This document shows positions 31,273 to 62,789 of a DNA stretch of 64,000 nt, piece after piece. Under the pieces are notes generated by a model. That model was given only the letters and a program-made list of their open reading frames with translations. It searched no databases and was not told where the DNA came from. The stretch is from assembly GCA_030390025.1 (NCBI GenBank), contig JASTWF010000339.1, positions 1 through 64,000 on the forward strand. Direction: 5' to 3'. The DNA comes from Squalus acanthias. Its lineage: Eukaryota. Within the stretch, counting starts at the first letter, position 1. Every line of letters begins with the position of its first letter. The position numbers and the translations under genes are program-made.

Positions 31273-32033
31273 GTGGAGATGCCGGCGTTGGACTGGGGTG
31301 GACAAAAATGAGAAGTCGCACAACACCAGGTTATAGTCCAACAGATTTATTTAATTTTACAAGCTTTTGGAGCTGTTCGCTCCTTCCTCAGGTAGGTTAG
31401 CAGTGAGAGAATCTCCCAGAATTCACAATTTAAACACAGACAAAATCTATTCAAATCTTTCCCTACATCAAAGACACACTAAGAGCACAGCCAAGACAAT
31501 GAGATGTGTCCCAGGGGGTCCAACGTGTCAAACCACCTGCTGGCTGCATATCCTGTCAATTTGTGTTGGTTCTTGTGTTAGTCCTTTTAAAAAAAAAACA
31601 AACACCTGGGAAGACCGGCCATGATGTCAAGTCACATTCTGTATCGTGACATGAACCCGATATCGCGATTGAGGCCATCCTCATGAGTGCGGAACTTGGC
31701 TACGTGACTTGACATCATGGCCGGTCTTCCCAGGTGTTTGTTTTTTTTTTTAAAAAGACTAACACAAGAACCAACACAAATTGACAGGATATGCAGCCAG
31801 CAGGTGGTTTGACACGTTGGACCCCCCTGGGACACATCTCATTGTCTTGGCTGTGCTCTTAGTGTGTCTTTGATGTAGGGAAAGATTTGAATAGATTTTG
31901 TCTGTGTTTAAATTGTGAATTCTGGGAGATTCTCTCACTGCTAACCTACCTGAGGAAGGAGCGAACAGCTCCGAAAGCTTGTAAAATTAAATAAATCTGT
32001 TGGACTATAACCTGGTGTTGTGCAACTTCTCAT
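31273..32033. mobile_element. Non-autonomous fold-back Penelope derivative (~760 bp)
   Basis: Arms ~31308-31635 and 31703-32033 are inverted copies of the PLE 3' region; the extra tail is only on the left; TAGTGTAATATA is duplicated at 31261-31272 and 32034-32045. Confidence 0.93.
31947..31983 (+). ncRNA. Minimal hammerhead ribozyme motif
   Basis: TAC-CTGAGGA-AGGAGCGAACAGCTCC-GAAA-GCTT-GTA; the mirror copy at 31358-31394 has GAAA>AAAA. Confidence 0.75.
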
Positions 32034-32594
32034 TAGTGTAATATAAACAGAGAGAGGGCCTAGTGTAATATAAACAGAGACAGGGTCTAGCGTAATATAA
32101 ACAGAGACAGGGCCCAGTGTAATATAAACAGAGACAGGGTCTAATGTAATATAAACAGAGTCAGGGTCTAGTGTAATATAAACAGAGACAGGGTCTAATG
32201 TAATATAAACAGAGTCAGAGTCTAGTGTAATATAAACAGAGACAGGGACTAGTGAAATATTAACTGAGGCAGGGTCTAGTGTAATATAAACAGAGACAGG
32301 GTCCAGTGTAATTTAAAAACATACAGACTCTGCACTCTGTCAATTAATCCCCTCACACTTCATGTCCCTGCTCTCAGACTGCGGGGTTCACGGTTTATTT
32401 TCTATCCAATCATTCTCGAAATATTCTGATCATTGAAGGCTGTCACATTCCATTTGTGCAATGCCTGTTTAATTGTTTTTTGTAATGTTACTATTGTTGG
32501 GACTGAAATGGTTAACTTGGTCTGTTTGTTTAACGACTGTAATTAATGTCAGTTCCCAGGGAATCTGCTCGTCTCTCTGGAGTTTTTACTCTAA

Positions 32595-32602
32595 TATAAA
32601 TA
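32595..32602 (+). promoter_or_regulatory. Candidate TATA box of the GPCR gene
   Basis: TATAAATA 100 bp upstream of the ATG at 32695. Confidence 0.4.
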
Positions 32603-32694
32603 AGATGCTCCTTTGAATTCTCTATTCCATTAATTCAGTGGGAGCGGTTCCTCGAGCACTGATCAGTTCATCCTTTCCCGCCAAAAGTGGAACC

Positions 32695-32791
32695 ATGTTT
32701 CGGGATTCCACACTAACTCTTCGGATGCTATGGGCAGTCTGGGACGTACAAAAGATTTACTTCCCCACCATCGCTGCCGTTGGTGTTCCCA
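32695..32791 (+). CDS. GPR139/GPR142-like orphan GPCR, coding exon 1
   Basis: ACCATG start; MFRDSTLTLRMLWAVWDVQKIYFPTIAAVGVP, then a phase-1 donor A|GTAAGT at 32792; joins in frame to 35972 to rebuild TM1 (GVP-x-NLV). Confidence 0.8.
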
Positions 32792-32984
32792 GTAAGTCCA
32801 ACTATTATCATCGTGAAGCATGTTTAACTGTATTACTGTTGTTCTGTGTTTCCCAATATCTTCCACAGTCTCGGATCATTGATGTTCCTGGTAAGTCCAA
32901 CTATTAACTCCGTGCACCATTTTTAACTTTGTTGCTGTTCCTCTGTGACTCCCATTTCCTGCCACAGTCTCAGGTCGCTGATGT

Positions 32985-33200
32985 TCATAGAATCATAGAG
33001 AGTTATACTGCAGAAGGAGGGCATTCGGACCCTCGCACCTGTACCGGACTCTGTGAAAGAGCAGTCGTGCTTAGTCCCACATTCCCGCTTTTTACCGGTA
33101 ACCCTGTAAGTTTCTCATCCTCATGTTCCTGTCCAACTCTCTTTTAAAACTGTTGTTGGAATAGCTTCCACCACCTATTCAGTTGGAGCGTTCCGATCCC
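32985..33200 (-). mobile_element. Short decayed CR1-type 3' end/SINE tail
   Basis: CATAGAATCATAGA tail and GCATTCGGACC; flanked by ATGTTC on both sides. Confidence 0.55.
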
Positions 33201-35450
33201 GACATGTTCCTGGGAAGTAACTGTTGGTTCAGTGTTGTTGCTTATGATGAAGGGACATGAAAGCTTAGCGCGCCTGAAAGATCTGCCGCTGTTACATATT
33301 TCAATCCAGGTTCCCACCCACTGATCTGAAATCAGTTAACTCTTTTAAACAGTGAGCCAAGAAATGCTACATGGAAGCGTTAAGGGTTTTCCACTTCATC
33401 GCCAACAGTAATGTTTACTCTTCTCTTCAGATAGTAATTCTCGAGACCATGTTTGTTTGATTGTTACTGTGGTTGTGATTTAGATAATTTACCCGCTGTT
33501 GGTTGTGCTCCGTGTATCCCTCTTGGTGTGCGGTATTGGAAGGTGTCTGTCTTGATGTGTTTGTTATACAGTCGCCTGTTCACTGGTCTGAGTTTAATGG
33601 ACACTGCGGCCTCACTCCTGTCATCTGTTTAACAATGTTTGAGAGGTAACTGTACTTTGACTCTTTAACGCCACCAATGTTACTCTTTGTCCCAGAATGA
33701 TGCCGGAACTGTGCTGTTCCATTAGATCAGAAATGTGTTTTCAGGAAGATTTTATATTCCGTATTCTGCGTACAGTTCAATGGGTAGAGCAGTAGCGATC
33801 TGACAGAAAGTCCAAAAATACACAGAAACGTTTGAGAAAACCCGCCAGCTCCACTTCACTGTCTGACTTTCCACCATCGCCCACTCCGCACTCCTCCCAT
33901 TGGTTGAGGATGTTTAAGACATGATTACAAGTGTAATGTTTGTTCCAGTAATATAGTCAATGAATCGTATTTTTAAAAACTTAATATTAATCATTACTCT
34001 GACACTCAGTGTAAAGCCATGCGGGCCTTGCACAGTTCAGGGAGTCTCTCAGTGAGGCGCAACCTGACTTTGGATAATCGCCTATGTCCTTTCTATCATC
34101 AATTGAAAACCCGGACAATTTATATTAATACGCGATTAATTGTTTGGTTGTAATTCAGTCTAAGAAAGTATATTGGTAAAGTATTGGGAAATCTGCCGTA
34201 AAATTAATTGCAATATATATATGAACTGAAAGTACTCATTTTAAATTAAAATAAAGCATTCGATTTACACAGCGTTTTATCTTATCTGTGCGAATGGTAA
34301 AACGTGTTTGACATTTACACACATGAAGTAGAGAGAACTTGGAGCAAAATCAGCCGCAATTTTTCACACAGCAGCTGGTAAATAGTTTAGTTGATGTTGT
34401 CTGGTGCTGGAATGTTGGCAATGACACCGAGAGCTCCATGTTCTTCCCGAAATAGTCCCAACGTTAACATCCCATGAATGAGAAGAGCGGGTCGAGACGA
34501 TCTCTCATCACACTCTCCCCGGAGGGAGGGCGCCTCTGATCAGTATTTAACTGGAGTGTTAACCCGCTCAAGGCCAGGAGTGGAGCTTGAACCCATGAGA
34601 TTCACACTCAACACGAGCCGAACTGACTCGGAATGAATCCAATGACTGAGTTTTTAATACAATTTACGACAGATTTATATTTAATATATTTCCTTTCTTC
34701 TCCCGCCACTTCCTCTGTTCCAAGCGAAGGTCTAATATCGCCACCTAAGACCTACACATCCTCCGCTCTGCTTCATTCTGCTACTGCTCAGCCGCAGTCC
34801 CGCTGGAGGAGACCGCCTCATTCATCTCGCTCCTTCTTCATCTCCACATTCTAGTAACCCTGGAACTCCCTGATAATGTAATATCTTCCCATCTACTGCG
34901 TGCGTGTTTTCTTTTATTTTACCTCCATCTTTTCTCTCCCCTTTTCTGAAAGCGCTGATCTTTTGGACCACGGGCTACGACGGTACAAACGCCTTCACCG
35001 AGAGAACCTAGACAGGGTCCATAGTAGGTATCAGAACCCCGCGTAAGCTGTTCTCATCTCACTGCCACACCTATGCACCTTCCAGTAAGTGTTGGTGGCC
35101 AGTGATCAGAAGGAACATCCCTGCCGCATTTCCCCCCTGATCCTACAGCACTGTGACACAAGTAACAGCGAACGGCCAATTCCTTACAGTCTTCCGTCCG
35201 AACCCGGGAAGTGTGGGTAATTTTTGCCTCCAGCTAAAACAAGGTGTTGTTATCGACCAGATCCACCAGTAATCTCCCATCACAGGAATGGTTTTTCTTA
35301 TAGTTTTCTGCAGATCCTTTTATTTATTGTGTTAAATTTTATACTGTTCAGTTATTTATTTCATATTTTATTTCTGCTTTTATTGTAAACCATGTCTCCA
35401 GTAGAAAGTACTGTCACAGGTAAAATAATCAGTCTCTATACCTGGATGTA

Positions 35451-35875
35451 AACATAGAAACATAGAATCTAGGAGCAGGAGTAGGCCATTCGACCCGTCG
35501 AGCCTGCTCCACCATTCAATACGATCATGGCTGATCATCCAAATCCAGTACCCCGTCCCTGCTCTAATCCCCACAGTACACATATCCCACCCTACCCCCG
35601 TAACCCCACGTATTTAATTCCCCCTAACATATCCCATCCTATCCCCATAACCCCACATATTTAATCCCCCCCTAACACTAAGGTTCAATTTATCATAGCC
35701 AAATCAACCTAACCCGCACATTTTTGGACTGTGGGAGGAAACCGGAGCACCCAGAGGAAACCCACGCAGACACGGGGAGAATGTGCAAACTCCACACAGA
35801 CAGTCACCCGAGGTCAGATTCGAACCCGGGTCCCTGGCGCTGTGAGGCACCAGTGCTAACCACTATGCCACCGTG
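35451..35875 (-). mobile_element. Full-length HE1-type V-SINE in the GPCR intron
   Basis: Minus strand begins CACGGTGGCATAGTGGTTAGCACTG (A box) ... GGTTCGAATC (B box), then the V-domain and a CR1-like 3' tail with (TTCTATGT)n. Confidence 0.93.
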
Positions 35876-35971
35876 TAGTAGCAAAGCTTCTAATTTCAGA
35901 TCGAACTCCACCGGTTTGCTGCTTCTGTTGGAGCCTGATGTATAATTTCTGTTTTGTAACCTTCCTTACAG

Positions 35972-36870
35972 TGAACTTGGTGACGATTGTGATCCTGTCT
36001 CGGGGAAGGTGCGGCCTCTCCAAATGTGTCTCCCGTTACCTGGTGTCCATGGCAGCGGCGGATCTACTGGTCATTATCATTGACGTGATACTAAGACAGA
36101 TTCCCGTCGCTTACGCTGCACAATTCCTCTTTGTACGGAATATTAAAGTGTGTAATATCCACGCTGTCCTGCTGTATGCAGTCACAGACTGTTCTGTCTG
36201 GTTCACAGTCGCTTTCACCTTTGATCGATTTGTGGCCATTTGTTGCCAGAAGCTGAAAACAAAATATTGCACCGAGAAAACGGCGGCTGTGGTTCTAGGA
36301 ACAGTGACTGTGCTGTTTTGTTTGCAAAATATTTTTTGGTACTTTATGTACACAAGTGAATATTTACTGTTTAACATGCCTTGGTTTTGCAATGTATTAG
36401 ACAGTGTTTTCTTTTCACGGGTATGGGCAACAATAGAATCTCTTCATTTTATTTTAACCCCATTTATTCCTTTTGTTCTGATTCTGCTGCTCAATGCTTT
36501 AACCATCAGACACATTTTATTGTCGAGCAGAGTCCGCAGGAGACTCCGGGCCCACAGCAGTGGGGAGAGTCCCAGTGACCCAGAGATGGAGAAGCGAAAG
36601 AAATCCATCATTTTACTGTTTGTTATATCCGGGAATTTTATCCTGTTATGGGTGATGTTTTTGGTGAATTCCATATACTTGCGCATAATCGCAATGTATA
36701 ATGACTCGAACATTAGCACTTCGCATATCCTACAAGAAATTGGATTCATACTTCAACTGTTGAGTTCTTGCACAAACACTTGTATTTATGCCGTGACCCA
36801 GACTAAATTCAGAGAGGAGTTGAAGTCTTTGGTGAAATTTCCCATCGCTCTAATTGCTAAATTAATGTAA
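35972..36870 (+). CDS. GPR139/GPR142-like orphan class A GPCR, coding exon 2 (spliced product 331 aa)
   Basis: Acceptor CTTCCTTACAG|; hydrophobic segments for the rest of TM1 through TM7; MAAADL (TM2), AFTFDRFVAIC (DRY-like), Cys in ECL2, SSCTNTCIY (NPxxY-like), basic helix 8. Confidence 0.92.
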
Positions 36871-37244
36871 AACTAAGAAAAGAAATGAAAACTGACCACC
36901 TGGCGCATGAAATACTAAACATAATTTATAAAGTATGCCTGAAACACTTATTAATTCGATGATATTTTAAATCTATTTGCAATATTTTATACTTTGTGCA
37001 GCAACTTGATATAAAATGAGCAGCTGCACAGGTATTGCACTAAACAGTTTACAAACATTTCAAAATGTTAATAAAACAAGACAAATATAAAACCTTCCCA
37101 TTGATAGTTTATACAATCTGCTTGAGCTTTCTTCGTTCTTATGTTGATGGTGCTCCATCTGCATGAACTGTGCTCATAAAATGCGGCAGAGAAAGATCCT
37201 GAGATCCTGTTTACAGGAAGCACCCAGCTGACCATTTACCGTCT

Positions 37245-37548
37245 GCTGGGATCCGTGGTCGTTGCCCTGTGTGGATTCCACTAGTTCAATAGGTGGAGCA
37301 ATGCGGGCCGCTAACAATAGGCTGGGATCCGTGGTCGTTGCCCTGTGTGGATTCTATTAGTTCAATAGGCGGAGCAATGCGGGCCGCTAACAATAGGCTG
37401 GGATCCGTGGTCGTTGCCCTGTGTGGATTCCATTAGTTCAATAGGCGGAGCAATGCGGGCCGCTAACAATAGGCTGGGATAAGTGGTCGTTGCCCTGTGT
37501 GGATGTCATTAGTTCAATAGGTGGAGCAATGCGGGCCGCTAACAATAG
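37245..37548. repeat. 76-bp tandem repeat x4
   Basis: GCTGGGATCCGTGGTCGTTGCCCTGTGTGGATT...GCTAACAATAG at 37245, 37321, 37397 and 37473. Confidence 0.93.
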
Positions 37549-37725: not shown

Positions 37726-37821
37726 GGATCGGCCGCCCGTTATACGCAGCGCCTGATATTCAGCTCCATTGACTGAAATTACAGCAAATATCAGGCGCTG
37801 CATATAACGGGCGGCTGATCC
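37726..37821. repeat. 35-bp inverted repeat with 26-bp loop, in a GC-rich MITE-like remnant
   Basis: GGATCGGCCGCCCGTTATACGCAGCGCCTGATATT / AATATCAGGCGCTGCATATAACGGGCGGCTGATCC. Confidence 0.75.
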
Positions 37822-39517: not shown

Positions 39518-40018
39518 GCAAAATCATCGAGCAGAAACTGATAGCCAAGTTCCGCACTCATGAGGACGGCCTCAACCGGGATCTTGGTTTCATGTCACGA
39601 TATATGACGTAGAGTCATCCAGACTCGAGTCGTCGTTGGCTTGTTCACAGATGTGATTTCCAGTTAAAAAAAAGTAAAATTTTAAAGTTTATCGTTTTCC
39701 ATACCGACTGCAACTTTTGACACATTAGACCCCCTGTAACCCCACCTCATTGTCTCAGTTGTATCTTGCTATGTCTTTGATGTGGTGCCTTCCTGGCTGA
39801 CCTGATTGTTTATCTGCCGAGGTGTGACAAAAGGCAGTCAGGAAGATTAAATGTAGTCGTCTGCCATTGTACGTTACACATGCATTGTTCTCTATCTATA
39901 TATGCTTTGTCGATTTGTATTCCTTTACTTCACCTGACGAAGGAGCAGCCGCTCCGAAAGCTTGTGATTTCAAATAAAACTGTTGGACTATAACCTGGTG
40001 TTGTGCGACTTCTCACTT
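39518..40018 (+). mobile_element. 5'-truncated Penelope-like element nested in the CR1 3' end
   Basis: RKIIEQKLIAKFRTHEDGLNRDLGFMSRY; TTGAATAAAC is duplicated at 39508-39517 and 40019-40028. Confidence 0.93.
39930..39967 (+). ncRNA. Minimal hammerhead ribozyme motif
   Basis: TCAC-CTGACGA-AGGAGCAGCCGCTCC-GAAA-GCTT-GTGA. Confidence 0.78.
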
Positions 40019-43000
40019 TTGAATAAACTCAACAACTCAGCATCCACAGCCCTCTGGGCGAGAGAATTCAGAATATTGACAACCCTCTGAGTGAAGAAAT
40101 TTCTCCTCCTCTCAGTCTTAAATGGCCGACCCCTTATCCTGAGGGTATGCCCCTAGTTCTAGACACTCCAGCCAGGGGAAACAACCTCTCAGCATCTACC
40201 CTGTCAATCCCCTTCAGAATCTTGTATGTTTCAATGAGATCATCTCTCATTCTTCTAAACTCCAGAGAGTATAGGCCCATTCTACACAATCTCTCATCAT
40301 AGGACAGCCCTCTCATCCCAGGAATCAATCTAGGGAACCTTCGTTGCATCCCCTATAAAGGATGCATATCCTTCTTTACATACGGAGACTAAAACTGTAC
40401 ACCGTACTTCAGGTGTGGTCTCATCAAAGCCCTGTACAATTGTAGCAAGACTTGCTTACTGTTGTACTCCAAACCCCCTTGCAATAAATGCCAACATACC
40501 ATTTGCCTTCCTAATTGAATGCTGTACCTGCATGTTAACTTCCTCTGTTTCGTGTACAAGGACTGCCAAATCCCTCTGAACACCAACATTTAATAGTTTC
40601 TCACTCGTTAAAAAATATTTTCTTTTCAGATTCTTCCTACCAAAGAGCATTGGTTAAAGGACAGAAAACAAAGACTAGGAGTAAACTTGTAATTTTCAGG
40701 TTGAAAGGCTGTTACTGGTACAAGTATTAGTGTTGGGCCCTCAGCCAGTTACAATCTAAATTAATGACTTAGATGAAGGGATTATTACCCTGCTAATTAT
40801 ATCCTCAAAAGGTTGTAATAAATTATTCAAACACGATTTCCCTTTCATGAAACCATGTTGACTCTGCCCAATCATGTTATGATTTTCTCAGTGCCCTGTT
40901 ACCACTTCCTTAACAATGGATTGCAGCATCTTCCCGATGACTGATGTCAGGCTAACTGGCCAGTATTTCCCTGTTTTCTCTTTCCCACCTTTCTGGAGTA
41001 GCGGTGTTATATTTTCTATCTTTCATTCCACCGGGACAGTTCCAGAATCTAAGGAATTTTGGAAAATTGCTACCAATGCATCCATTATCTCTGCAGACAC
41101 CTCTTTGAGGATCTCAGGATGTGGGCCATCAGGTACAGGGGATTTGTCGGATTTTAGTCCCATTAATTTATCCAGTACTTTCTCTTTCCTAATATTAATT
41201 ACTTTAAGTTCCTCACTCTCATTAGACGATTGGCTCCCCATTATCTCTGGTCTGTTTTTAGTCTCTGTTACGGTGAAGACAGATACAAAATATTTTTAAC
41301 GTCTTTGACATTTCCTGATGCCCCATTATAAGTTCTACAGTCTCAGCCTCTAAGGGACCCACGTTTACTTTCGCTACTCTCTTCCTTTTTATATACTTGT
41401 AGAAGCTCTTAAAATCTGTTTCTATTTTCTCCTTCTTTATCACTATTTTGGCCATCCTTTGCTGGTTTTTGAAACTCTCCCAATCCTCAGGCTTACTATT
41501 CTTCTTGGCAACGTTATAAACCTCTTTTAATCTAATACTATTCTTATCCTCATTAATTAGTCATGGATGGATCACTTTTTCCGTGATGTTTTTATATCTC
41601 AATGAAATGTATATTTAATGAGAATTATGAAATATTTCTTTAAATGTTCACCTTTGCATATCTACCGCCATACCTTTTAATCTATTTTCCCAGTCTACCT
41701 TAGTTAACTCGCCACTTATACCTTTGTAATTGGCTTTAGTTAAGTTTAAGATTTTTGTTTCGGACTTAAGTACGTCACTCTTGAATTCAACGTGGAATTC
41801 TATTATGTTATGGTCACTCTTCCCCAGATTAGTAATTACCCCTGTCTCATTACACAAGACACGATCTAAAATAACCTCTTCCCTGGTTGCTTCCACGATG
41901 AATTGTTCTAGGAAAATCTCTCTCGTGCGTTCCATTAACTCTTCTTCAAAACTACTTTTGCCAATTTGATTTGTCGAGTCTATATGAAGATTAAGGTCCC
42001 CCACGATTATTGCATTACCTTTGTTAGAAGCTTCTCTTATTTCTTGATGAATACTCTGTCCAACAGTATAGATACTGTTCGGGTGGCCTACAAACTACTC
42101 CCACCAATGTTTTCTGTTCTTTGTTACTTCTTATTTCCACCCATACTGATTCTACTTCCTGGTCTTCTGAGCCAAGATCCTTCCACATTACTGTCCTTAT
42201 GTCATCCTTTATTATCAGTGCTACCCGCCCTCATTTTCCATTTTGTTTGTCTTTTCGGAATGTCAAGTACCCTGGAATATTATTTCCCAATGTTGGTTAA
42301 CCTGCAATCACGTCTTTGTAATGGCGATTAGATCAAACCCATTTATCACTATTTGTGTCATTAATTCCTCTATCTTGTTACGAATGCTTCGTGCATTCAG
42401 ATAAAGCATTTTAATATTAACCTTTTACCTTTTTCCCCTGATTTGACCGTATTCACTGATGCACTATTACTGTTAAACTCTCTGTCCCTCCCTGTCACAA
42501 TCTGCTTATCTTTATCCAATCGCTACACTGCTCTATGGACTTGAATTTTCTCTTTAGATTTTGTACGTTTCCCCTTACCTGATTTCTCCCCTTTTAATTT
42601 AAAGCCCTATCTACAGCCTCAGTTTTTCAATTCGCCGGAACATTGGTCACAGCCCGGTTTAAGTGGCTACTGTCCAAATGGAACAGCCCCCTCTTTCCCC
42701 AGTACTGTCGCGAGTGACCAATGAATCGAAACCCCTTCCTCCCATACCACTCTTTGAGCCACGCATTTAAACCTCTAATCTGTTTCATCCTGTGCCAATT
42801 TGCATGTGACTCTGGTAACAATCCAGAGATTATTAGCTTTAAGGTTCTGCTTTTTAATTTGGATCCTAGATACTCAAACTTCCTCAGCAGAACCTCATTT
42901 CTAGATCTACCGATGTCGTTGGATCCGACGTGGAACACGACAACTGGATCCTCCCTCTACCACTTCAAGTGCTTCTCCAACCGCGTGGAGAAGTTCTTAA

Positions 43001-43359
43001 CCCTGGCACTGGACAGGCAACACAACCTCGGAACTCCCGATCGTAGCTGCCGAGAACTGTATCTATCCTCTGACTATAGGGACCCTTACCAGTACCACAT
43101 TCTTTTTCACTCCCCCCATTTGAACGCCCTCATGTACCACGGTGCCATGGTCAGATTGCTCATTCACTCTGCAGAGTTTACTTCATCCACATTGGCCGCA
43201 AGTACCTTGCACTTGTTTGAAAGTGACAAAGGTCGAGGCTCCTCCAGCACTGCACCTGGGGTCCCCTTACTTGCTTGAGTCGCAGTCACACCCTCCTTTC
43301 TATGACCTGATTTGTACCACCTCTTAACCTAAAAGGTGTGACCGCCTCCTGGATCAAAG

Positions 43360-44064
43360 GGCTAAAAAATCCGTAGCGCCCCGTTTGGGCGATAACTTTA
43401 GAAATCTCAGAAAAGTATCGCCAGGCGATAATCATTTTCTCGTCCCGGGAAATTGAAATTTAGCGCTCCAAGAGGGAAGTGGAGCGCTAAATCAAGCGCT
43501 AACCACTTCTCTTAGGGTGCTAAATTGCGAGTATGGGGCGGTAGCAGCAGAGCGCTGAACAATGTGGAGTGCAAAGATACCGGCATCGGAGGCTGCTTCC
43601 CTCGCTTAAAGAGAAGGGCCAATGATGGTGCACAACATGCTTCTGCTCAGTTCTCTGTTGCCAGGCGACCTGTTCGACTGCCATTCTAGCCCCTTTCACT
43701 CTCAGCATCTCGCAGCAATAAGCATCGAAAACTTTCAGGAGGCACCAGACTGGTGCAAAGAATACCACTGCCTTTAGTTAGCGCTCTCCAAGCGGCCAGC
43801 CGAGGTAACAACGCCTCCGCTTCCTGCCGTTGCTGACACCCAGCGATAGCAGGGGGCAGGAGGCAATTTCATCTCCGGGGCGGTAACGGGGCACTGCGCA
43901 CTTTATGACGTCAGAACCTGCGAGGCGCTGGAGGGTGATGTGGTAAGTGTTAGCGCCAGTGCTAAACCGGCAGGGAAGTTTGCAGGCATTGCTGAATTCG
44001 CCGCACCCAGTCGCTAGCCCCTTAGCGTCCCAGTACCGCCTCCCCCAGGCGCTAACAGGAGGTG
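43360..44064. mobile_element. ~705-bp GC-rich non-coding insertion in CR1 ORF1
   Basis: Removing it restores ...GAGTTACCTGGAGACTTTGATCCAGGAGGCGGTCACACC (cf. 58468-58508); CAAAG lies on both sides (43355-43359, 44065-44069). Confidence 0.7.
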
Positions 44065-44386: not shown

Positions 44387-44597
44387 TGATGTGGAGATGC
44401 CGGTGTTGGACTGGGGTGGACAAATGTGAGAAGTCGCACAACACCAGGTTATAGTCCAACAGCTTTATTTGAAATCACAAGCTTTCGGAGCGCTGCTCCT
44501 TCGTCTGACTTCACCTGACGAAGGAGCAGCGCTCCGAAAGCTTGTGATTTCAAATAAAGCTGTTGGACTATAACCTGGTGTTGTGCGACATCTCACA
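44387..44597. mobile_element. Non-autonomous fold-back Penelope derivative (~210 bp)
   Basis: Inverted arms of the PLE terminus around a ~12-nt loop; tail only on the left; TTAAATTAAATA is duplicated at 44375-44386 and 44598-44609. Confidence 0.92.
44511..44547 (+). ncRNA. Minimal hammerhead ribozyme motif
   Basis: TCAC-CTGACGA-AGGAGCAGCGCTCC-GAAA-GCTT-GTGA. Confidence 0.78.
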
Positions 44598-47487: not shown

Positions 47488-50400
47488 GATAGTATCATTA
47501 AGGGGATAGATAGGATTCTTTGCAGCCGAGAGCGAGAGTCCCGAAGGCTATGTTGCCTGCCCGGTGCCAGGGTTAAGGACATCTCCTCTGGGCTGGAGAG
47601 AAACTTGGAGTGGGAGGGGGAAGATCCAGTTGTCGTGGTCCATGTTGGTACCAATGACATAGATAGGACAAGGAATGAGTTCTGCTGAGGGAGTATGAGC
47701 AGCTAGGGGCCAAATTAAAAAACAGAACCTCTAGGGTAGTAATCTCTGGATTACTACCTGAGCCACGAGCAAATTTGGCTAGGGTAAATAAAATCAGAGG
47801 GTTAAATGCGTGGCTCAAAGACTGGGAGAAATGGGTTTTGCTACCTGGGACACTGGCACCAGTGCTGGGACAGGAGAGAGCTGTTCCGTTGGGACGGACT
47901 TCACTTGGCCAGTGCTGGGACTAGAGTCCTGGCGAATCGAATAACTAGGGCTGTAGAGAGGGCTTTAAACTAATTAGTGGGGGGGAGGTTTCAAGAGAGC
48001 AAAAAATAAAAATGTCAGCGGAGAAGGCAATAGAGCAAAGTAGCAGTGGGGTAATTAAAAACCAGAGCGTGTCAGGAAGGGACAGAATATATAAAGATAA
48101 AGATAAAGTAGTAAAGGGGGTAAAAGCAGGAATAAATTGTCACAAAACATATTTAAAAGTTCTTTATCTGAATGCACGCAGCATTCGTAACAAAATAGAC
48201 AAATTGACGGTACAAATAACTACGTATGGGTATGATCTTGTGGCCATTACAGAAACATGGCTGCAGGGTGACAACGACTGGGAATTAAATATGCCAGGGT
48301 ATTTAACAATCAGGAAGGACAGACAGGAAGGAAGAGGAGGTGGGGTAGCTATGTTAATAAAGGAAGGAATCACTGTATTACAGAGAAATGATATTGGGTC
48401 AAAGGATCAGGATAATGAAACAGTTTGGGTGGAGATAAGGAATAATAAAGGGAAAAAAACACTAGTGGGAGTAGTATATAGGCCTCCTAATAGTTGCAAC
48501 TCTGCTGGAAGAAGTATTAATCAGGAAATAGTTGGGGCATGTAATAAGGGAACAGCTATAATTATGGGGGATTTTAACTATCATATTAACTGGACAAATC
48601 AAATTGGGCAGGGCAGCCTTGAGGAAGAGTTTATTGAGTGTCTTAGGGATGGATTTCTTGAGCAGTATGTAACTGATCCTACAAGGGGGCAAGCAACCTT
48701 GGACCTGGTCCTGTGTAATGAGTCAGGATTAATTAATAATGTCCTAGTTAAGGATCCCCTTGGAATGAGTGACCATAACATGGTTGAATTCCATATCCAA
48801 TTAGAGGGTGAGAAGGTTGGTTCTCAGACAAGCGTACTGAGCTTGAATAAAGGAGACTATGATGGTATGAGAGCGGAATTGATTAAAGTGGACTGGGAAA
48901 ATAGATTAAAGGGTACATGAGCAGTGGTGTTCATTTAAGGAGTTATTTTACAACTTTCAAAAAATATATATTCCACTGAGGAAAAAAGGGTGTAAAAGAA
49001 ATGACAGCCATCCGTGGCTAAGTAAAGAAATTAAGGATAGTATCCAACTAAAAACAAGGACATATAAGGTAGCCAAACTTAGTGGGAGGATAGAAGATTG
49101 GGAAGTCTTCAAAAGACAGCAAAAAGTAACTAAAGGATTGATTAAGAAAGGGAAGATAGATTATGAAAATAAATTAGCAAAAAATATAAAAACAGATAGC
49201 AAGAGTTTCTATAGTTATATAAAAAGAAAAAGGGTGGCTAAGGCAAACGTAGGTCCCTTAGAGGATGAGACCGGGAAATTAATGGTGGGAAACATGGAGA
49301 TGGCAAAAATGCTGAACAAATATTTTGTTTCAGTCTTTACGGTAGAGGACACTAAGAATATCCCAACACTGGACAAACAGGGGGCTCTAATGGGAGAGGA
49401 GCTAAATACGATTAAAATCACTAAGGAATTGGTACTCAGTAAAATAATGGGACTCAAGGCGGATAAATCCCCTGGACCTGATGGCTTACATCCTAGGGTC
49501 TTGAGGGAAGTGGCAATAGGGATTGTGGATGCTTTGGTAATAATTTTCCAAAATTCCCTGGACTCAGCAAAGGTCCCTGCAGATTGGAAAACTGCTAATG
49601 TAACACCCTTATTTAAAAAGGGTAGTAGGCAGAAAGCTGGAAATTATAGACCAGTTAGTCTAACATCTGTGGTGGGTAAAATTTTGGAGTCTATTATTAA
49701 GGAGACAGTAACAGAACATTTAGATAAACATAATTTGATAGGACAAAGTCAGCATGGCTTTATGAAGGGGAAATCATGTCTGACAAATTTGCTTGAGTTC
49801 TTTGAGGACATAACGTACAGGGTGGATAAAGGGGAACCAATGGACGTAGTGTATTTAGACTTCCAGAAGGCATTCGACAAGGTGCCACATAAAAGATTAT
49901 TGCTCAAGATAAAAAATCACTGGATTGGGGGGAATATTCTGGCATGGGTGGAGGATTGGTTATCTAACAGGAAGCAGAGAGTTGGGATAAATGGTTCATT
50001 CTCGGACTGGCAACCAGTAGCCAGTGGTGTTCCGCAGGGGTCAGTGCTGGGTCCCCAACTCTTTACAATCTATATTAACGATTTGGAGGAGGGGACCGAG
50101 TGTAACATATCAAAGTTTGCAGATGATACAAAGATGGGAGGGAAAGTAGAAAGTGAGGAGGACATAAAAAACCTACAAGGGGATATAGACAAGCTGGGTG
50201 AGTGGGCAGAGATTTGGCAGATGCAATACAATATTGGAAAATGTGAGGTTATGCACTTTGGCAGGAAAAATCAGAGAGCAAGTTATTATCTTAATAGCGA
50301 GAAACTGGAAAGTACTGCAGTACAAAGGGATCTGGGGGTCCTAGTGCAAGAAAATCAAAAAGTTAGTATGCAGGTGCAACAGGTGATCAAGAAGGCCAAC

Positions 50401-51157
50401 GGAATGTTGTCTTTTATTGCTAGGGGGATAGATTATAAAAACAGGGAGGTATTGCTACAGTTATATAAGGTATTGGTGAGACCGCATCTGGAATACTGCA
50501 TACAGTTTTGGTGTCCATACTTAAGAAAAGACATACTTGCTCTCGAGGCAGTACAAAGAAGGTTCACTCGGTTAATCCCCGGGATGAGGGGGTGGACATA
50601 TGAGGAGAGGTTGAGTAGATTGGGACTCTACTCATTGGAGTTCAGAAGAATGAGAGGCAATCTTATTGAAACATATAAGATTGTGAAGGGGCTTGATCGG
50701 GTGGATGCGGTAAGGATGTTCCCAAGGATGGGTGAAACTAGAACTAGGGGGCATAATCTTAGAATAAGGGGCTGCTCTTTCAAAACTGAGATGAGGAGAA
50801 ACTTCTTCACTCAGAGGGTAGTGGGTCTGTGGAATTTGCTGCCCCAGGAAGCTGTGGAAGCTACATCATTAAATAAATTTAAAACAGAAATAGACAGTTT
50901 CCTAGAAGTAAAGGGAATTAGGGGTTACGGGGAGCGGGCAGGAAATTGGACATGAGGCTGAGTTCGGATCGGTCGAGGCCCTGTGGGTGGCATAGCGGGC
51001 CCAGGGGCTGAGTGGCCGGGTCCTGCTCCTACTTCTTGTGTTCTTTAGATTTGAGGTGAGGATCAGATCAGCCATGATCTTATTGAATGGCGGAGCAGGC
51101 TCGAAGGGCCGATTGGCCTACTCCTGCTCCTATTTCTTATGTTCTTATGTTCTTATG
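47488..51157 (+). mobile_element. CR1 LINE: partial ORF1 (SGNH-esterase-like) + ORF2 (APE 48012..48920, RT 49138..50955)
   Basis: CCLPGARVKDI...[29 protein letters not shown]; intact RT motifs; frame disrupted near 48915-48965; (TTATGTTC)n tail. Confidence 0.95.
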
Positions 51158-53311: not shown

Positions 53312-53978
53312 ATACTGTATTCGCTGGTCACGATGTGGTTTCCTCGACATAGGGGAGACAAAACGCAGATCGGGTGACCGCTTTGCTTAACATCTCCGTT
53401 CAATCAGCAAGCCTCACCCTGAGCTTCCGGTCGCTTGTCAGTTTAATTCTCCAGCCCTCTCACACTCTGACCTCTCTGTCGTCGGCCTCTTACACTGTGC
53501 TACTAAGGCTCAACGGAAACTCAAGGAACAGCACCTCATCTTTCGAATAGGCATTTTACAGCCTTCCAGACTCAACATCGAGATCAACAATTTCAGATCA
53601 ATACCACTGCTCCCATTTTTCGGACAGCAGGTGTTGGTCATGATTCTGCCATTGCCATTTACACCTCCTCCAGACCCATCTTTTGTTTCTTTACTTGTCC
53701 CATTAACACCCCTTTTTCTCTTGCACCATCCTCCCTTTTGTCATTTAACCACTCCTGCCTTCTACCAATTCACTGACCTTCCCTTTAGTTCTTTCCTCCC
53801 CTCGCCCCTTTCCCTGCCTCTGCACTTGCATCTCTAACTTTATCCAGTTCCGACAAAAGTCCATCGACCAGAAATGTTGACTCTGTTTCTCTCTCCACAG
53901 ATGCTGCCTGACCTGCTGAGTATATCCAGCATTTTCTGTTGTTATTCAGATTTCCAGCATCCTCAGTATTTTGCTTTT
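53312..53978 (+). mobile_element. Decayed Penelope-like element, second family (GIY-YIG + 3' region)
   Basis: YCIRWSRCGFLDIGETKRRSGDRFA*HLRS...RKLKEQHLIFRIGILQP resembles PLE GIY-YIG; 3' end shared with 17547-17679. Confidence 0.8.
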
Positions 53979-55130: not shown

Positions 55131-55133
55131 ATA

Positions 55134-55875
55134 GGCCCAGAAATTAAAGACGGAGCCTTCCTGCGGGGGTAAGGCTTCCCCGCGATATCTCACTGCGCGC
55201 CTGCCTTTTCATTCCGAGCTCACACGAACTTTACTTTCAAGACTGCAGCTGTGCAGTGCTTGCTATCCCACAAACGCAGTTAATTCGTGCGAGCTGTGGG
55301 ATCACGTGATTCAGTTAGAGCCAATGGCAGCACACCATCTTTCATTCATAGTTTTCACAGCAAGGGCTGTGAAAGCTATGAATCTATACGCACCCCAGAA
55401 GAACAGCTAAACCTCAATTAAATTTTAAAAAACTCATCACATTAATAAAATAAGTATAGTTAAATAAATTAACCACTTTAAACAAAAAATTAAATTTTTG
55501 AAAAAATTTAAAATCTTTTTAAAAGTTATAAAAATAAACTTACCTTTCTTTAAAGTCTCTAAAAAAGATATACCTGTTGAAAAAAATTCAAAATAATACT
55601 TAATTAACTACTTACCTTGTTAAAAGAGGGTCTTACGCCTCCTTTCTTTATGTGCAAAATCTTCCATGCTTACCTGCGCGTTCAAAGCACTAAGTGCACT
55701 GCGTGCGCGCAGCCTGTAGCGCGCACGCGGTTCACCTAGGAACCGCCCCCTTTTGAGTTCACCAAGTGCCGGTTTTCAGCGCATGCACAGTGCATGCAGA
55801 AAACCGGCAATTGGAGACAGAATACGCGAGAGTACACAGTGCGTACTCTCGCATAGTGAGACTAATTTTTGGGCC
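55134..55875. mobile_element. Non-autonomous DNA transposon (MITE-like), 13-bp terminal inverted repeats
   Basis: GGCCCAGAAATTA ... TAATTTTTGGGCC (12/13 match); non-coding interior with an AT-rich core and small palindromes; no clear TSD. Confidence 0.6.
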
Positions 55876-55929
55876 ACAGTATATCATTTGTGAATTTAAT
55901 AAGAGCTGTTTCAGCGCCATTATAATGGG

Positions 55930-57360
55930 GTGCATATATTTCCTATTGTATTTCTGGTATTTTACTGTGGGTGAATTATCACACTGTTATCGCTGAGTAC
56001 ATGTAGTTCTATTGTGTTATTGACACTGTCACTGTGGGTGAATTATAATTCTGTTATCACTGTGTACATGGAGTTCTATTGTGTTACTGACACTGTCACT
56101 GTGGGTGAATTATCACACTGTTATCACTGTGTACATGGAGTTCTATTGTGTTACTGACACTGTCACTGTGGGTGAATTATCACACTGTTATCACTGTGTA
56201 CATGTAGTTGTATCATGTTATTGACACTGTCACTGTGGGTGAATTATAATTCTGTTATCACTGTGTACATGGAGTTCTATTGTGTTACTGACACTGTCAC
56301 TGTGGGTGAATTATCACACTGTTATCACTGTGTATATGTAGTTGGATTGTGTTACTGGCACTGTCACTGTGGGTGAATTATCACACAGTTATCACTCAGT
56401 ACAAGGAGTTCTACTGTGTTATTGACACTGTCACTGTAGATGAATTATCACACTGTTATCACTGTGTACATGGAGTTCTATTGTGTTATTGACTCTGTCA
56501 CTGTGGGTGAATTACCACATTGTTATCACTGTGTACATGGAGTTCTATTGTTACTGACACTGTCACTGTGGGTGAATTCTCACACTGCATCACTGTGTAC
56601 ATGGAGGTCTATTGTGTTACTAACACTGTCATTGTCGGTGAATTATCCCACTGTTATCACTGTGTACATGGAGTTCTATTGTGTTACTTTCACTGTCACT
56701 GTGGGTGAATTATCACACTGTTATCAATTTGTACATGGGGCTCTATTGCGTTACTGACACTGTCACTGTGGGTGAATTATCTCAGTTATCACTGTGTACA
56801 TGGAGTTCTATTGTGTTACTGACACTTACATTGTGGGTGAATTATCACACTGTTATCACTGTGTACATGGCGTTCTATTGTGTTGCTGACACTGTCACTG
56901 TAGGCGAATTATCACACTGTTATCACTGTGTACATGGAGTTCTATTGTGTTACTGACACTGTCACTGTGGGCGAACTATCACACTGTTATCACTGTGTAT
57001 ATGGAGTTCTATTGTGTTATTGACACTGTCATTGTGGGTGTATTATCAAACTGTTATCACTGTGTACATGGAGTTCTATTGTATTACTGAAACTGTCATT
57101 GTGGGTGAATTATCACACTGTTATCACTGTGTACATGGAGTTCTATTGTGTTACTGACACTTTCACTGTGGGTGAATTATCACACTGTTATCACTGTGTA
57201 TATGGAGTTCTATTGTGTTACTGACACTGTCACTGTGGGTGAATTATCACACTGTTATCACTGTGTACATGGAGTTCTATTGCGTTACTGACACTGTCAC
57301 TGTGGGTGAATTATCACATTGCTATCCCTGTGTACATGGAGTTCGATTGTGTTATTGATA
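55930..57360. repeat. 67-bp minisatellite (~21 copies)
   Basis: Unit CTGTCACTGTGGGTGAATTATCACACTGTTATCACTGTGTACATGGAGTTCTATTGTGTTACTGACA; related diverged units at 53108-53290. Confidence 0.96.
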
Positions 57361-57600
57361 TTAACATTGACTAAGTTCCACAAATGATTAAATAATACTC
57401 GACTGAATTCAATTAATTAATTTAGAGCAATGACATTATTTGGTGGTGAGTTGCTGACAGAAATATAAACAATGCAACAAGTGGCCGTATTATAAACGAA
57501 AATGTATTTTCCCCAAACTCCCACAGCGCAGTTTTTCTGCTCTCAATCTCTGACTATCACTGGTTCAGCTCGGCTCCCTCTTCCATATTCGCTGCTGCTC

Positions 57601-60600
57601 TCTTGAATAGGCACCAATCACCAGGACCAGGGAAGCTGAGTCATCACTTTTAAATTGGGTGAGACTCTTAGTGTGTAAAAGTAAAAATTTCTGCAGAGTA
57701 CAGACCGGCCTGCACAGAGCGGGATTAAACGGAGTGGAATTGAACAGAGTGTTTTATATGGGAAATTGGAAAGAGTGGGAATTTCTGGTAAGTTTTTGGG
57801 TAAGTAGATGCTGTAAAAAGTGAAATTTAGTTTGTGATTTTGATGTTAACTTGGAACTTTAAAAAACTGTAGTTAACAGAAGCTGTTGTTTGTGGCAGTT
57901 AACTGTCAGTCATTTGTAAGTGTTTGTCTTGAATAGGCGCTAATCACCCGGAGCAGGGGAGCTGAGTTATCACTGGTAAATTGGGTGAGGCTCCTAATGT
58001 ATAAAAGCAAACATTTCTGCAGAGTGTGTGCGGTCTGCACAGAGCGGGTTTAAACGGACTGGACTTGAAGAGAGTGTTTTATTTGGGAATTTGGAAAGAG
58101 TGGGAATTTGGAGAAGAGGGGGAAGGTGATTTTTTTGCCCACACTACTTGTAGTGCTTGGTGTTAAAGGTAGATATTTAATTTCAGTACCCATAATTTAA
58201 GATAGATCAAGTAATTGTCCAGAAACTTTAATGTAAACTAAGTTGCCTAAAAACAAATTTAATTAAATGTAATTAAATACAACACGTTCATATAGGGATG
58301 GCAGTGCAGGTGGTGTGCCGCAGTTGCAGCATGTGTGAGTTTGTGAAGAGCATTGTGATCCCGGACAACCACATTTGCAGTAAGTGCCTGCATCTTGAGG
58401 AAATTCAGCTCAGAGATTTTGAGCTGGAGATTCAGGTGCAGACATTGCCGGGCATCAGGGATGTGGAGAGTTACCTGGACATTTTGATCCAGGAGGCAGT
58501 CACACACCTTCGGGTAGGTAGTTTTACAGGTCTGGTTAGTGGTCAGGGACAGGAGGGTGTGACTGCAACTCAGGCAGGTAAGTGGACCTTAGGCGAAGTG
58601 CTAGATGAGCCTCAGCCTTTGCATTTGGCTAACAGGTACGAGGTCCATGCTGCCTGTGTGGATGAGGGAAAAGCCTGAAGGATGGTTAAACAAGCTGACC
58701 ATGACACCACGGAGGAGTTGTATAGTCAAGGGGATAGATACTGTTCTCTGCAGCTGCGACCGAGAGTTCCGAAGATTGACTTGGGTTAATGGCATCTCCT
58801 CGCGGCTGGACAATAACTTGGAGTGGGAGGGGGAGGATCCAATTGTCGTGGTCCACGTAGGAAACAATGACATAGGTAGATCTAGAAATTAGTTTCTGCT
58901 GAGAGAGTTTGAGGAACTAGGATCCAAATTACAAAGCAGAATCTCAAAGGTAATAATCTCTGGACTGTTACCTGAGCCACGTGCAAATTGGCATCGGGAC
59001 GAACAGATTAGAGGTTTAAATTCGTGGCTGAAAGAATGGTGTGCGAGGTAAGGGTTTCGGTTCATTGGGAAAGAGGGAGCTGTTCCGTTGCTCTTCTTAA
59101 ACCTGGCTGGGATCAGTGTCCTGGTGAACCGAATAACTAGGGCAGTAGACAGGGCTTTAGTCTAATGAAGGGGAGGGGAGCGGGAGGATTCAGGAAAGAG
59201 CAGCAAGAGAAATGTCAAGTTTTTAGAAAAGTGTAGAGTTTTGTGTAAAAATAAGCAGAGTGGGTCAGGAAGGGACAGAGAGAGTAACAAAGGTAATACG
59301 GCATCAGTGACTAATGTGACATCAGGAAACAACACAAATAAGTCAAAGCTAAAGGAACTACATCTGAATGCGCGAAGCATTCGCAACAAAATAAATAAAT
59401 GAATAGTGCAGATAGAAATTAACAGGTTTGATCTAATAGCCATTACAGAGACGTGGTTGCAAAGTGGCCAAGTTTGGGGACTTTACTTTTAGAAGAGATA
59501 GGCAAAATATAAAAAGAGGAGGGGAAGCCCTGATAAAAAAGGATGGGTTAAGACAGTAGAGAGAAAGCATCTTAGCTCTGAAAATTAAGAAGTAGAATCA
59601 GTTTGGATGGAGTTAAGAAACAGCAAGGATCAGAAAACAATGGTGGGAGTTGTTTATAGGCCCCAAAACAATAATTGTAGGGCAGATACGGAAATTAGTG
59701 GCGCATGTACCAAGGGTAATACAGTCATCATGAGGGACTTTAATCTATATTTAGATTGGGCAACCCAAATTTGCAGTAATAGTGTGGAGGACGTTTTTCA
59801 TGGAATGTATGTAAGATAGATTTCTAGATCAGTATGTTGAGAAACCATCTAGGGAAAAGGTTATTTTAGACCTAGTGTTGTGCAATGAGAAACGGTTCAT
59901 TAATAACCTTGTAGTAAAAGGGCATTTAGGGAAGAGTGACCATAATATGATAGAATTTTAGATTGAGTTTCAAAGTGAGTTAGTTAAATCCAAAACTAGG
60001 GTCGTAAATCAAAACAAAGCAAACTACGTAGGTATGAGGGGCGAGTTGGCTGAGTTAGATTTGGAAACTCCATTAAAAGGAATGGCAGTAGATATACAAT
60101 GGCTAGCATTTTAAACAAAATACATAATTTACAACAAATATACATTCCTTTAAGGCACACAAACCACAAAGAAAAGTGATACAACCGTGGCGAAAACAGA
60201 AGTTGAAGATAGTATGAGATCGAAGGAAGAGGCTTATAATGTTGCCAAAAAGAATAGTAAGCCTGAGGATTGGAAGGATTTTAAAATTCAGCAAAGGAGG
60301 AGCAAAAAATTGATAAAGAAAGGGAAAATAGAATGAGAGTAAACTAGCGAGACACATAAAAGAGACTGTAAAAGCTTCTATGGGTATGTAAAAAGTAAAA
60401 GATTAGCGAAAATAAATATGGGTCCCTTACATGCTGAGACAGGAGAAATTATATTGGGAAATAAGGAATTGGCAGAGAAATTAAACAAATACTTTGTATC
60501 TGTCTTCACAGAAGAAGACGCCAAAAACTTTCCGGAAAAAGTAGAGATCAAGGCTCTAGCAAGAAAGAGGAACTGAAACAAATTAGTATGAGTAAAAAAA

Positions 60601-62205
60601 ATAGTACTGGAGAAATTAATGGGACTGAAAGCCAATAAATCTCTTCGACCTGATGGCCTACATCCTAGGATTTTGAAAGACGTGGCTATAGAGATAGTGG
60701 ATGCATTGGTTGTCATTTTCCAAAACTCCATAGATTCTAGAACGGTTCTCGCGGATTGGAAGCTGGCAAATGTAACACCACTATTTAAGAAAGGAGGGAG
60801 AGAGAAAACAGGGAACGACAGACCAGTAAGCCTGACATCAGTAGTAGGGAACATGCTAGAATCTATTATAAAGGACTTGGTAACAGGGCACTTAGAAAAT
60901 AATTATAGGACTGGGCAGGGTCAACACTGATTTAGGAAAGGGAAATCGTTTTTGACAAATCTGTTAGAGTTTTTTCAGAATGTATCTAACATAATAGATA
61001 AGTGGAAACCAATGGATGTGATGTATTTGCATTTTCAGAAGGCATTCGATAAGATGCCACGCAAGATGTTCTTAAACAAAATTAAGGTTCATGGGATTGG
61101 GGTAATATACTAGCAGGGATTGAGGACAGAAAACAGAGAGTAGGAATAAATGGGTCATTTTCGGGTTGGAAGGCTGTAACTAGTGAGGTACCGCAAGGAT
61201 CAGTGCTTGGGCCTCAGCTATTCACAATCTACATCAATGATTTGGATGAGGGGACTAAATGTAATATGTCCAACTTTGCTGCTGATACAAAGCTGGGTGG
61301 GAATGTAAATTGTGAGGAGGATGCAAGGAGGCATCAAGAGGATATAGACAGGCTAAGTGATTGGGCAAGAACGTGGCAAATGCAATACATTGTGGAGAAA
61401 TGTGAAGTTATCCACTTTGGTAGGAAAAATAGAAAAGCAGAGTATTTTTTAAATGGTGAGACATTGCAAAATGATGGTGTTCAGAGGGACCTGGGTGTCT
61501 TTGTACAGGAATCACTGAAAGTTAACATGCAGGTGCAGCAAGCAATACGGAAAGCAAATGGTATGTTGGACTTTATTACAAGAGGATTTGAGTGTTAGAG
61601 TAAGAAACGTATTAATGCAATTATATTGGGCCCTGGTAAGACCACACCTGTAATATTGTGTACAGTTTTGGTCTCCTTACCTAAGGAAGGATATACTTGC
61701 CGCAGAAGGAGTGCAACGACAGTTCACCAGACTGACTCCTGGGAAAGGGGTATTGTCCTATGAGGAGAGATTGAGTAGACTAGGCCTATATTCTCTGGAG
61801 TTTAGAAGAATGAGAGGTAATCTCATTGACACATACAAAATCTTACAGGTCTTGACAGGGTAGATGCAGGGAGGATGAATTCGCTGGCAGGGGAGTCTAG
61901 AACCAGAGGACACAGTCTCAGAATAAGGGATCGACCATTTAGGACTGCGATGAGGAGATATTTCTTCACTCGGGGGGTGGTGAATCTTTGGAATTCTCTA
62001 CCCCAGAGCGCTGTGGAGGCTCAGTCCTTGAGTATATTCAAGACAGAGATCGATAGATTTTTGAATATTAAGGGATATGGGGATAGTGCAGGAAAGTGGT
62101 GATGAAGTAGAAGATCAGCCATGATCTTTCTGAATGGCGGAGCAGGCTCGAAGGGCCAAATGGCCTACTCCTGCACCTTGTAATTTTTTTATGTTCTTAT
62201 GTTCT
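57601..62205 (+). mobile_element. Decayed full-length CR1 LINE (duplicated 5' UTR, ORF1 Cys-rich domain + esterase, ORF2)
   Basis: ORF1 starts at 58298 (MAVQVVCRSCSMCEF...HICSKC); esterase motif VVHVGNND; APE/RT fragments at 59350-62102 with many stops; (TTATGTTC)n tail. Confidence 0.92.
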
Positions 62206-62433
62206 GACATTTCTACAGTGAACACTGCTGACCCCGAGAGTTCCTTCTGCTCCTAACACCTGGCAATGTTCCGGACTGTTCCCGTCTTCATTAATTGAGT
62301 GAGGCTGCATAACTGATGGCAGGTCTCGTAACTGAATCACAAAGTTTTAATGATGCAGAGATGCCGGTGTTGGACTGGGGTGGACAAAAGTGAGAAGTCG
62401 CACCAGGTTATAGTCCAACAGTTTTATTTGAAA

Positions 62434-62471
62434 TCACAAGCTTTCGGAGCTGCTGCCCCTTCGTCAGGTGA
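62434..62471 (-). ncRNA. Minimal hammerhead ribozyme motif (minus strand)
   Basis: Reverse complement reads TCAC-CTGACGA-AGGGGCAGCAGCTCC-GAAA-GCTT-GTGA. Confidence 0.75.
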
Positions 62472-62665
62472 AGTGAAGGAATACGAATCGGCAAAGCATA
62501 TATAGACAGAGAACAATGCCTGTGTAGCGTACAATCTCAGACAACTACAGTTAATGTGTGTGATGAAAGGCAGTCAGAACGATTAACTGTAGTCGTCTGA
62601 GATTGTACGCTACACAGGCATTGTTCTCTGTCTATATATGCTTTGCCGATTCGTATTCCTTCACT

Positions 62666-62703
62666 TCACCTGACGAAGGGGCAGCAGCTCCGAAAGCTTG
62701 TGA
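62666..62703 (+). ncRNA. Minimal hammerhead ribozyme motif
   Basis: TCAC-CTGACGA-AGGGGCAGCAGCTCC-GAAA-GCTT-GTGA. Confidence 0.75.
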
Positions 62704-62789
62704 TTTCAAATAAAACTGTGGGACTATAACCTGGTGTTGTGCGACTTCTCACAAAGTTTTATGTTCAACATCCACTGTCAGCCTTTTTT

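Follow-up and report, generated by a model that had tools for sequence, protein, structure and literature searches.

Head-to-head hairpins and solo copies in the window

The stretch of DNA analyzed here (the window) comprises 64,000 nucleotides of Squalus acanthias, positions 1 to 64,000 of the forward strand of contig JASTWF010000339.1 (assembly GCA_030390025.1). It is repeat-rich vertebrate DNA with long interspersed nuclear element (LINE), zinc-finger and G protein-coupled receptor frames, and it carries six insertions that share one terminus, namely four hairpins of 0.2, 0.4, 0.76 and 5.8 kb and two direct solo copies (Table 1). In each hairpin the 3' end of a Penelope-like retrotransposon (Penelope-like element, PLE) is present twice, head to head and 5'-truncated. 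The sequence-only reading had proposed four hairpins of one plan, and comparison of the window with itself recovered all of them at the proposed places as inverted pairs of one terminus. The solo copy at 39518-40018 was likewise confirmed, with its end inside the range of positions used by the tail-less arms. The self-comparison also gave a second direct solo copy, tail-bearing, at 19482-19953, which had been overlooked.

Table 1. Insertions with the Penelope-like terminus, their parts and the satellite array (positions in the window)
Feature	Positions	Strand	Target duplication	Description
5.8-kb element	22037/8-27838		13 bp (22025-37/27838-50), inside a 21-23-bp match
Tail-less inverted arm of 5.8-kb element	22037..24873	-		Copy of the open frame with a stop; hammerhead core mutated; 24-nt deletion
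Tail arm of 5.8-kb element	24872..27838	+		5'-truncated Penelope-like element: open frame, 3' region, hammerhead, tail
Loop of 5.8-kb element, 62 nt	24874..24935	+		Coding sequence of the tail arm; apex microhomology 2 nt (GA)
Open frame, 869 codons	24872..27481	+		RVT_1, DKG, YIDD, CX4CxxC linker, GIY-YIG-like domain with CCHH
Minimal type-I hammerhead motif	27716..27752	+		Core intact by sequence
Tail, about 37-43 nt	27796..27838	+		U-rich start
760-bp hairpin	31273..32033		12 bp (31261-72/32034-45), within satellite	Tail arm (-) 31273-31702, tail 5 nt short, core mutated; loop ~64 nt; tail-less arm (+) 31702-32034, core intact at 31950
210-bp hairpin	44387..44596		13 bp (44374-86/44597-609)	Tail arm (-) 44387-44505, beginning inside the hammerhead core; 11-nt loop; tail-less arm (+), core intact at 44515
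400-bp hairpin	62350..62748		13 bp (62337-49/62749-61)	Tail arm (-) 62350-62555; loop of 26 nt, part of the tail-less arm (+); intact core in each arm (62467 -, 62670 +)
Direct solo copy, tail-less boundary	39518..40018	+	10 bp	5'-truncated; inside a LINE fragment
Direct solo copy, tail boundary	19482..19953	+	12 bp	5'-truncated; inside satellite; core mutated
27-bp AT-rich satellite array, ~9.5 kb net	15618..32332	+		Hosts three of the six insertions

Each hairpin consists of two facing arms separated by a loop of 11-64 nt, with a tail of about 40 nt on one arm only. An inverted 5'-truncated copy with a tail of 30-40 nt at one end is typical of Penelope-like insertions (PMC8557442, PMC3846280) and was found in 4/4 hairpins; statements attributed to cited papers refer here and below to the excerpts of those papers that were available. 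Within one element the arms are 97-99% identical in their terminal part, and between elements the identity is 83-98%. The smaller elements are nested 3' pieces that belong to at least three subfamilies, their last 120 nt being about 87-98% alike. The apex junctions are different in all four hairpins.

The target duplications of 12-13 bp that had been claimed for the hairpins are present, with lengths of 13, 12, 13 and 13 bp in the 5.8-kb, 760-bp, 210-bp and 400-bp members. When the same search was applied to 3000 random non-tandem position pairs, a match of 10 bp was reached in 2 and one of 13 bp in 0. Three of the six duplications sit in the 27-bp satellite, and for these the register alone is informative; two oppositely oriented hairpins have duplicated one and the same 12-nt phase of the satellite. 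A further copy of the last 11 nt of the tail (22015-22025, +) is found in the satellite immediately beyond the tail-less arm of the 5.8-kb element, and a 23-bp stretch of tail plus target (22015-22037 on the left) is consequently present at both ends of this element. The extra copy looks like the trace of an aborted priming of 11 nt at the same nick.

Two trivial origins of such inverted repeats were considered, DNA-transposon MITEs (miniature inverted-repeat transposable elements) or fold-back elements on the one hand and errors of assembly on the other, and both together are judged exceedingly improbable. The general inverted-repeat shape is what they would explain. The ends, however, are asymmetric, the duplications vary from 10 to 13 bp, and the arms are nested 3' pieces of an element that encodes a reverse transcriptase (RT). 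A class II MITE was therefore rejected: symmetric terminal inverted repeats and a duplication of fixed length are lacking, and the parent encodes RT. The earlier description of the hairpins as MITE look-alikes of retrotransposon derivation is upheld by the Penelope-type RT-endonuclease encoded in the 5.8-kb member and by the near-fixed boundaries described below. With regard to assembly, the arms of the 5.8-kb element differ in 45 of 2842 aligned columns, plus insertions and deletions; 19 of these differences lie in CpG context, while a slipped T/A run accounts for 5 and the duplication for 2. At 14 sites both public DNA runs were at least 95% fixed for another letter, and from these letters the right arm alone deviates at 12 sites and both arms at 2 (36 of 40 listed rows were used for this comparison, a further 133 rows lying outside it). 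Since the differences are mostly private to the right arm, the palindrome is real and has aged since its insertion; the arms carry post-insertion mutations and an assembly artefact was rejected.

Parent element and the two boundaries

The 869-codon frame of the 5.8-kb element matches RVT_1 above the Pfam cut-off, and its closest protein relatives, at 82-92% identity, are named for sharks. In an alignment of eight proteins (the window's and seven homologues) the DKG motif and the linker C777-X4-C782-X2-C785 are invariant, as are C809/C820/H860/H866, Y816/Y829, R840, E890 and N905 of the C-terminal domain; one of the aligned homologues (P0020) passes the Pfam GIY-YIG model PF01541. Judged by its predicted protein, with RT followed by a GIY-YIG-type domain, the element belongs to the endonuclease-bearing (EN+) PLEs. 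A linker of the form CX2-5CxxC between RT and endonuclease marks Neptune and Nematis and is absent from Penelope and Poseidon (PMC8557442), and by its motifs the parent is a Penelope-like element with the Neptune/Nematis linker. It counts against so precise a placement that the window's own C-terminal domain gave no Pfam GIY-YIG match, so that its assignment rests on motifs and alignment; Neptune would be preferred to Nematis on the strength of vertebrate distribution. A sequence search of the PDB gave 0 matches at E<=1, and scanning for exact patterns of the conserved terminus gave 0 loci in metagenome and viral contigs.

The frame starts about 20 residues into the homologues, and loose ends before 24872 in public contigs, read by hand, extend it; even the 5.8-kb copy is thus 5'-truncated. 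Neither direct pseudo-long terminal repeats (pLTRs) nor a partial tandem around a full open reading frame (ORF), nor any complete copy, was found in the window, as truncated insertions would lead one to expect; claims on the parent are not weakened by it. In the public contigs the summed depth rises about 50-70-fold from the 5' to the 3' part of the element, which fits a graded 5' truncation; the public sequencing runs contain at most 0.77 of the sampled words, and their species may differ from that of the window.

Copies end at one of two boundaries, which enclose the tail. The tail end lies at 27837-8 in four of the five tail-bearing arms and 5 nt earlier, at 27833, in the fifth. Right after 27838 the public contigs pass out of the element into unlike flanks, in 103, 111 and 22 records and with a flank agreement of 0.37-0.42 (18 of 1384 loose-end rows were listed). 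The plurality letters past this point begin with GAC, which would complete an ATG, and the tail end is likely to fall inside the start codon of the ORF.

The tail-less arms had been described as stopping at essentially the same nucleotide in every case. Mapped by hand on the right arm of the 5.8-kb element, their ends lie at 27794-5, 27798-9, 27798-801, 27794-8 and 27800-3: the boundary is near-fixed, and no base fits all five ends. A single-nucleotide boundary was accordingly rejected in favor of a span of 10 nt at the U-rich start of the tail. These ends share 1, 1, 3, 4 and 3 nt with the target, also by hand, and a rough null built from the sequence of one subfamily and AT-rich sites gave P(sum>=12)=0.014. 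Among the 15 of 38 public-contig joints listed, 8 exit at 27796-27801, into satellite. Each boundary is also used alone by one direct solo copy, the tail-less one at 39518 and the tail end at 19482. This indicates that the tail-less end is a start site and not the stop of a fold-back, and it agrees with PAc, a Poseidon element of Anolis carolinensis whose tail is bounded by two RT starts (PMC11167929).

Formation of the hairpins

The hairpins are very probably by-products of Penelope activity, made de novo at each insertion. The route considered somewhat probable is one in which both nicked target strands prime RT at two internal sites about 40 nt apart, followed by coupled elongation and end-joining. 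The RT-endonuclease, probably a dimer, would nick an AT-rich target at positions 12-13 nt apart. One 3' end would prime at the end of the tail and the other at its U-rich start, through a pairing of 1-4 nt. The two cDNAs would elongate in a coupled manner, so that their stops would lie about 10-65 nt apart at any length, and would then be joined head to head with 0-2 nt of microhomology or two added bases. If one end alone primed, a direct solo copy with or without the tail would result. The hammerhead motifs would be passengers from the terminal repeat of the parent, and the smallest hairpins (minis) would be incapable of further movement from the outset. Whether the anatomy of the hairpins records a coupled double priming by a single enzyme dimer is regarded as an even question. 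No statement of coupled double priming for Penelope-like elements was found in the literature searched, which covered few subscription papers.

Two observations bear on the choice of route, the use of each boundary alone by a solo copy and the arm to which the loop belongs. The loop continues the tail arm in two hairpins (5.8 kb and 760 bp) and the tail-less arm in the other two (210 bp and 400 bp). In the latter two (2/4) each arm thus has sequence that is missing from the other and neither is a subset. Since loop and tail there lie on different arms, neither arm could have been copied from the other, barring a later deletion at the apex.

Coupled double priming competes with a second de novo route, in which the second arm arises by fold-back or self-priming of the tail-primed cDNA or from an antisense template; this is held to be possible, with a distinctly lower probability. 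The free target end would anneal at the U-rich start of the tail, and deletion at the apex or processing of a hairpin precursor would blur the arm to which the loop belongs. Such a route would account for short loops whatever the length of the hairpin and for the 1-2 nt of apex microhomology in the 5.8-kb and 760-bp hairpins, in which the loop lies on the tail arm, and self-priming or an antisense template has already been proposed for rotifer Penelopes (PMC3846280). It is opposed by the loops of the 210-bp and 400-bp hairpins, which continue the tail-less arm and are missing from the tail arm, and by the solo copy at 39518, which reaches the tail-less boundary without fold-back. Moreover, the apex palindromes that underlie the rotifer argument are not seen here beyond 1-3 nt. 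Of the earlier proposal of a fixed boundary plus fold-back synthesis, the boundary therefore stands as near-fixed and the fold-back part is doubtful.

Several considerations weigh against double priming. The stops of the two arms lie 11-65 nt apart over a 30-fold range of length, and the 5' bins are reached by no more than about 3-6% of the depth found at the end of the ORF (summed contig depth being a crude measure). Since the stops match although long cDNAs are rare, the arms are not independent truncations; two independent cDNAs would rarely be equal, so coupling must be assumed, whereas fold-back supplies it at no cost. Fold-back is an equally good fit to the 5.8-kb and 760-bp hairpins, and deletion at the palindrome apex afterwards could shift the loop to either arm. 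PAc, which furnishes the precedent for two start sites, is of the Poseidon clade, and PMC11167929 found no difference of start site between the strands and does not, in the excerpt covered, model inverted insertions. Finally, the sample consists of four hairpins.

As a further alternative, considered quite unlikely, the smallest hairpins would be non-autonomous units whose transcripts the Penelope enzyme re-inserts in the manner of retrozymes or short interspersed nuclear elements. In one form of this alternative, of equally low probability, short hairpins would be re-inserted whole as a double-stranded RNA hairpin with a single-stranded tail, and would be retro-derived MITE look-alikes distinct from tandem retrozymes. 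In favor of such units, the last ~180 nt show a depth about 2-3 times that at the 3' end of the ORF and several-fold above that of the two bins directly upstream. The arms, which differ by about 1%, are young; termini of PLEs are able to work in trans, and derivatives of PLEs that are not autonomous are known (PMC3846280, PMC8557442, bioRxiv 2026.07.22.740005). The terminal excess of depth, however, may reflect several families that share the terminus. The four junctions all differ, and the minis at 44 kb and 62 kb are 95-96% identical to each other and 99% within themselves, which places them in different subfamilies. Among the 15 of 38 joints listed, one opposite-strand joint was found, in one contig with a depth of 76 against about 10^6; this strand-change test is weak, since repeat contigs are short and the junctions of the two smallest minis are invisible to the reference. 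In PAc the minimal RNA reaches some 55 nt further than the RT start (PMC11167929). The minis end with the tail, and by analogy with PAc a part of the binding site would be missing from them.

The hammerhead motifs also bear on this alternative. A minimal type-I hammerhead descriptor, written from PMC4209133, matched 6/10 arms or solo copies, all in these elements, and found 0 matches in 20 shuffles. A minimal hammerhead thus appears to be present in the terminal repeat, as in EN+ Penelope-like elements. Both cores are intact in the 400-bp hairpin at 62 kb only (1/4 hairpins), and broken cores were found in the tail-less arm of the 5.8-kb element, the tail arms of the 760-bp and 210-bp hairpins (the latter cut at the apex) and the solo copy at 19 kb; the hairpins can be called ribozyme-bearing, as had been proposed, in the sense of the descriptor and not in that of paired intact cores. 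Rfam gave no match of any family at the gathering score and no hammerhead match at E<=10 (19400-64000); at E<=10 the same region gave sub-threshold matches only, microRNA models leading, on the hairpins. For stem II a pairing probability of 0.95-0.98 was predicted in two arms folded in isolation and one of 0.03 in another; every whole-hairpin RNA folded gave 0.000. The predicted fold of the 211-nt element has -157 kcal/mol (z -24). According to these models the hairpin duplex would sequester the hammerhead motifs. Minimal PLE hammerheads cleave weakly, as same-strand dimers, and opposite-strand pairs 100-700 bp apart have been noted (PMC4209133).

For units mobile on their own, then, the hammerheads are opposite in orientation, broken on one arm in 3/4 hairpins and predicted to be sequestered. 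The suggestion that the smallest hairpins are independent retrozyme-like parasites was not borne out: with 4/4 junctions different, they carry opposed hammerheads where retrozymes have tandem same-strand ones, and the smallest has a tail arm without the start of the core and a stem II pairing of 0.000 in the whole hairpin. No head-to-tail units with a same-strand type-I hammerhead were found; the units are head to head, and no tandem of the terminus occurs in the window.

Relation to known systems and context of the window

The hairpin architecture itself is already described for Penelope-like insertions. Canonical EN+ insertions such as Pen2a_Av (PMC8557442, PMC3846280) share with the window units the head-to-head copy, the tail at one end, the target duplication, the 5' truncation, AT-rich or repeat targets, and RT followed by a C-terminal GIY-YIG-type domain. 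They differ in that most window units are merely two facing termini without a direct pLTR, in that the duplications measure 10-13 bp here against 8-10 in the rotifer (PMC3846280/PMC8557442), and in that the tail would end at the start codon here and ends inside the ORF in Pen2a and PAc. The protein of PAc, the anole element, cleaves and extends both target strands in vitro and is predicted to form a dimer (PMC11167929). Likenesses to it are the two adjacent boundaries that bound the tail, the AT-rich targets and the hammerhead just upstream; PAc belongs, however, to another clade, without the linker motif of the window element.

The hammerheads resemble the minimal ones of metazoan PLEs (PMC4209133) in the extra base between A9 and stem II, the short helix I, the palindromic 15.2-16.2 and the lack of helix III, and differ from those described in that paper in being from a shark and known from sequence alone. 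Non-LTR retrozymes (bioRxiv 10.64898/2026.07.22.740005) are likewise small, non-coding, derived from a PLE terminus and provided with a type-I hammerhead, but consist of head-to-tail repeats with same-strand ribozymes, whereas the window units are single head-to-head hairpins.

A different process that inverts 5' sequence is twin priming of L1, in which the second target strand primes internally on the RNA. There the two arms correspond to separate portions of the RNA, and the position of the internal site varies. The window hairpins are unlike this, both arms copying the same stretch from a near-fixed site. The literature, with the coverage stated above, gave no treatment of this shark family, of Penelope hairpins in sharks or of PLE twin priming; Repbase and Dfam, which lay outside the search, may already list the family.

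The mechanism of inverted PLE insertions is unsettled in the cited papers, and a shark family that is young and very abundant provides junctions by the thousand, at which double priming and fold-back predict differently, namely in the arm that bears the loop and in the microhomology at the apex. Such hairpins are easily mis-annotated as MITEs or as microRNA precursors, the latter because every sub-threshold Rfam match on the hairpins is to a microRNA model.

The 27-bp satellite may be a preferred target. It also hosts one insertion of another family, and further joints of tail-less ends with satellite were seen among the public-contig joints listed. A second, unrelated short repeat is present at 17548-17680 (-) and 53856-53975 (+), its copies being 86% alike. 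It has a hammerhead-like core with one extra base at 17676 and the palindromic ACGT, and probably represents the end of a different Penelope-like family. At 37726-37821 and 55759-55817 lie two GC-rich, imperfect palindromes (80-82%), which are MITE-like and unrelated to the Penelope terminus. LINE copies 67-82% alike lie at 4304-7269, 40800-43360, 47949-50955 and 58483-62205, two of them with long RT/endonuclease frames, and the solo copy at 39518 interrupts one LINE copy of this set. The remaining features are a C2H2 zinc-finger array at 9335-10213 (+) and an open frame of 336 codons at 35860-36870 (+) that matches the 7tm_1 receptor family.

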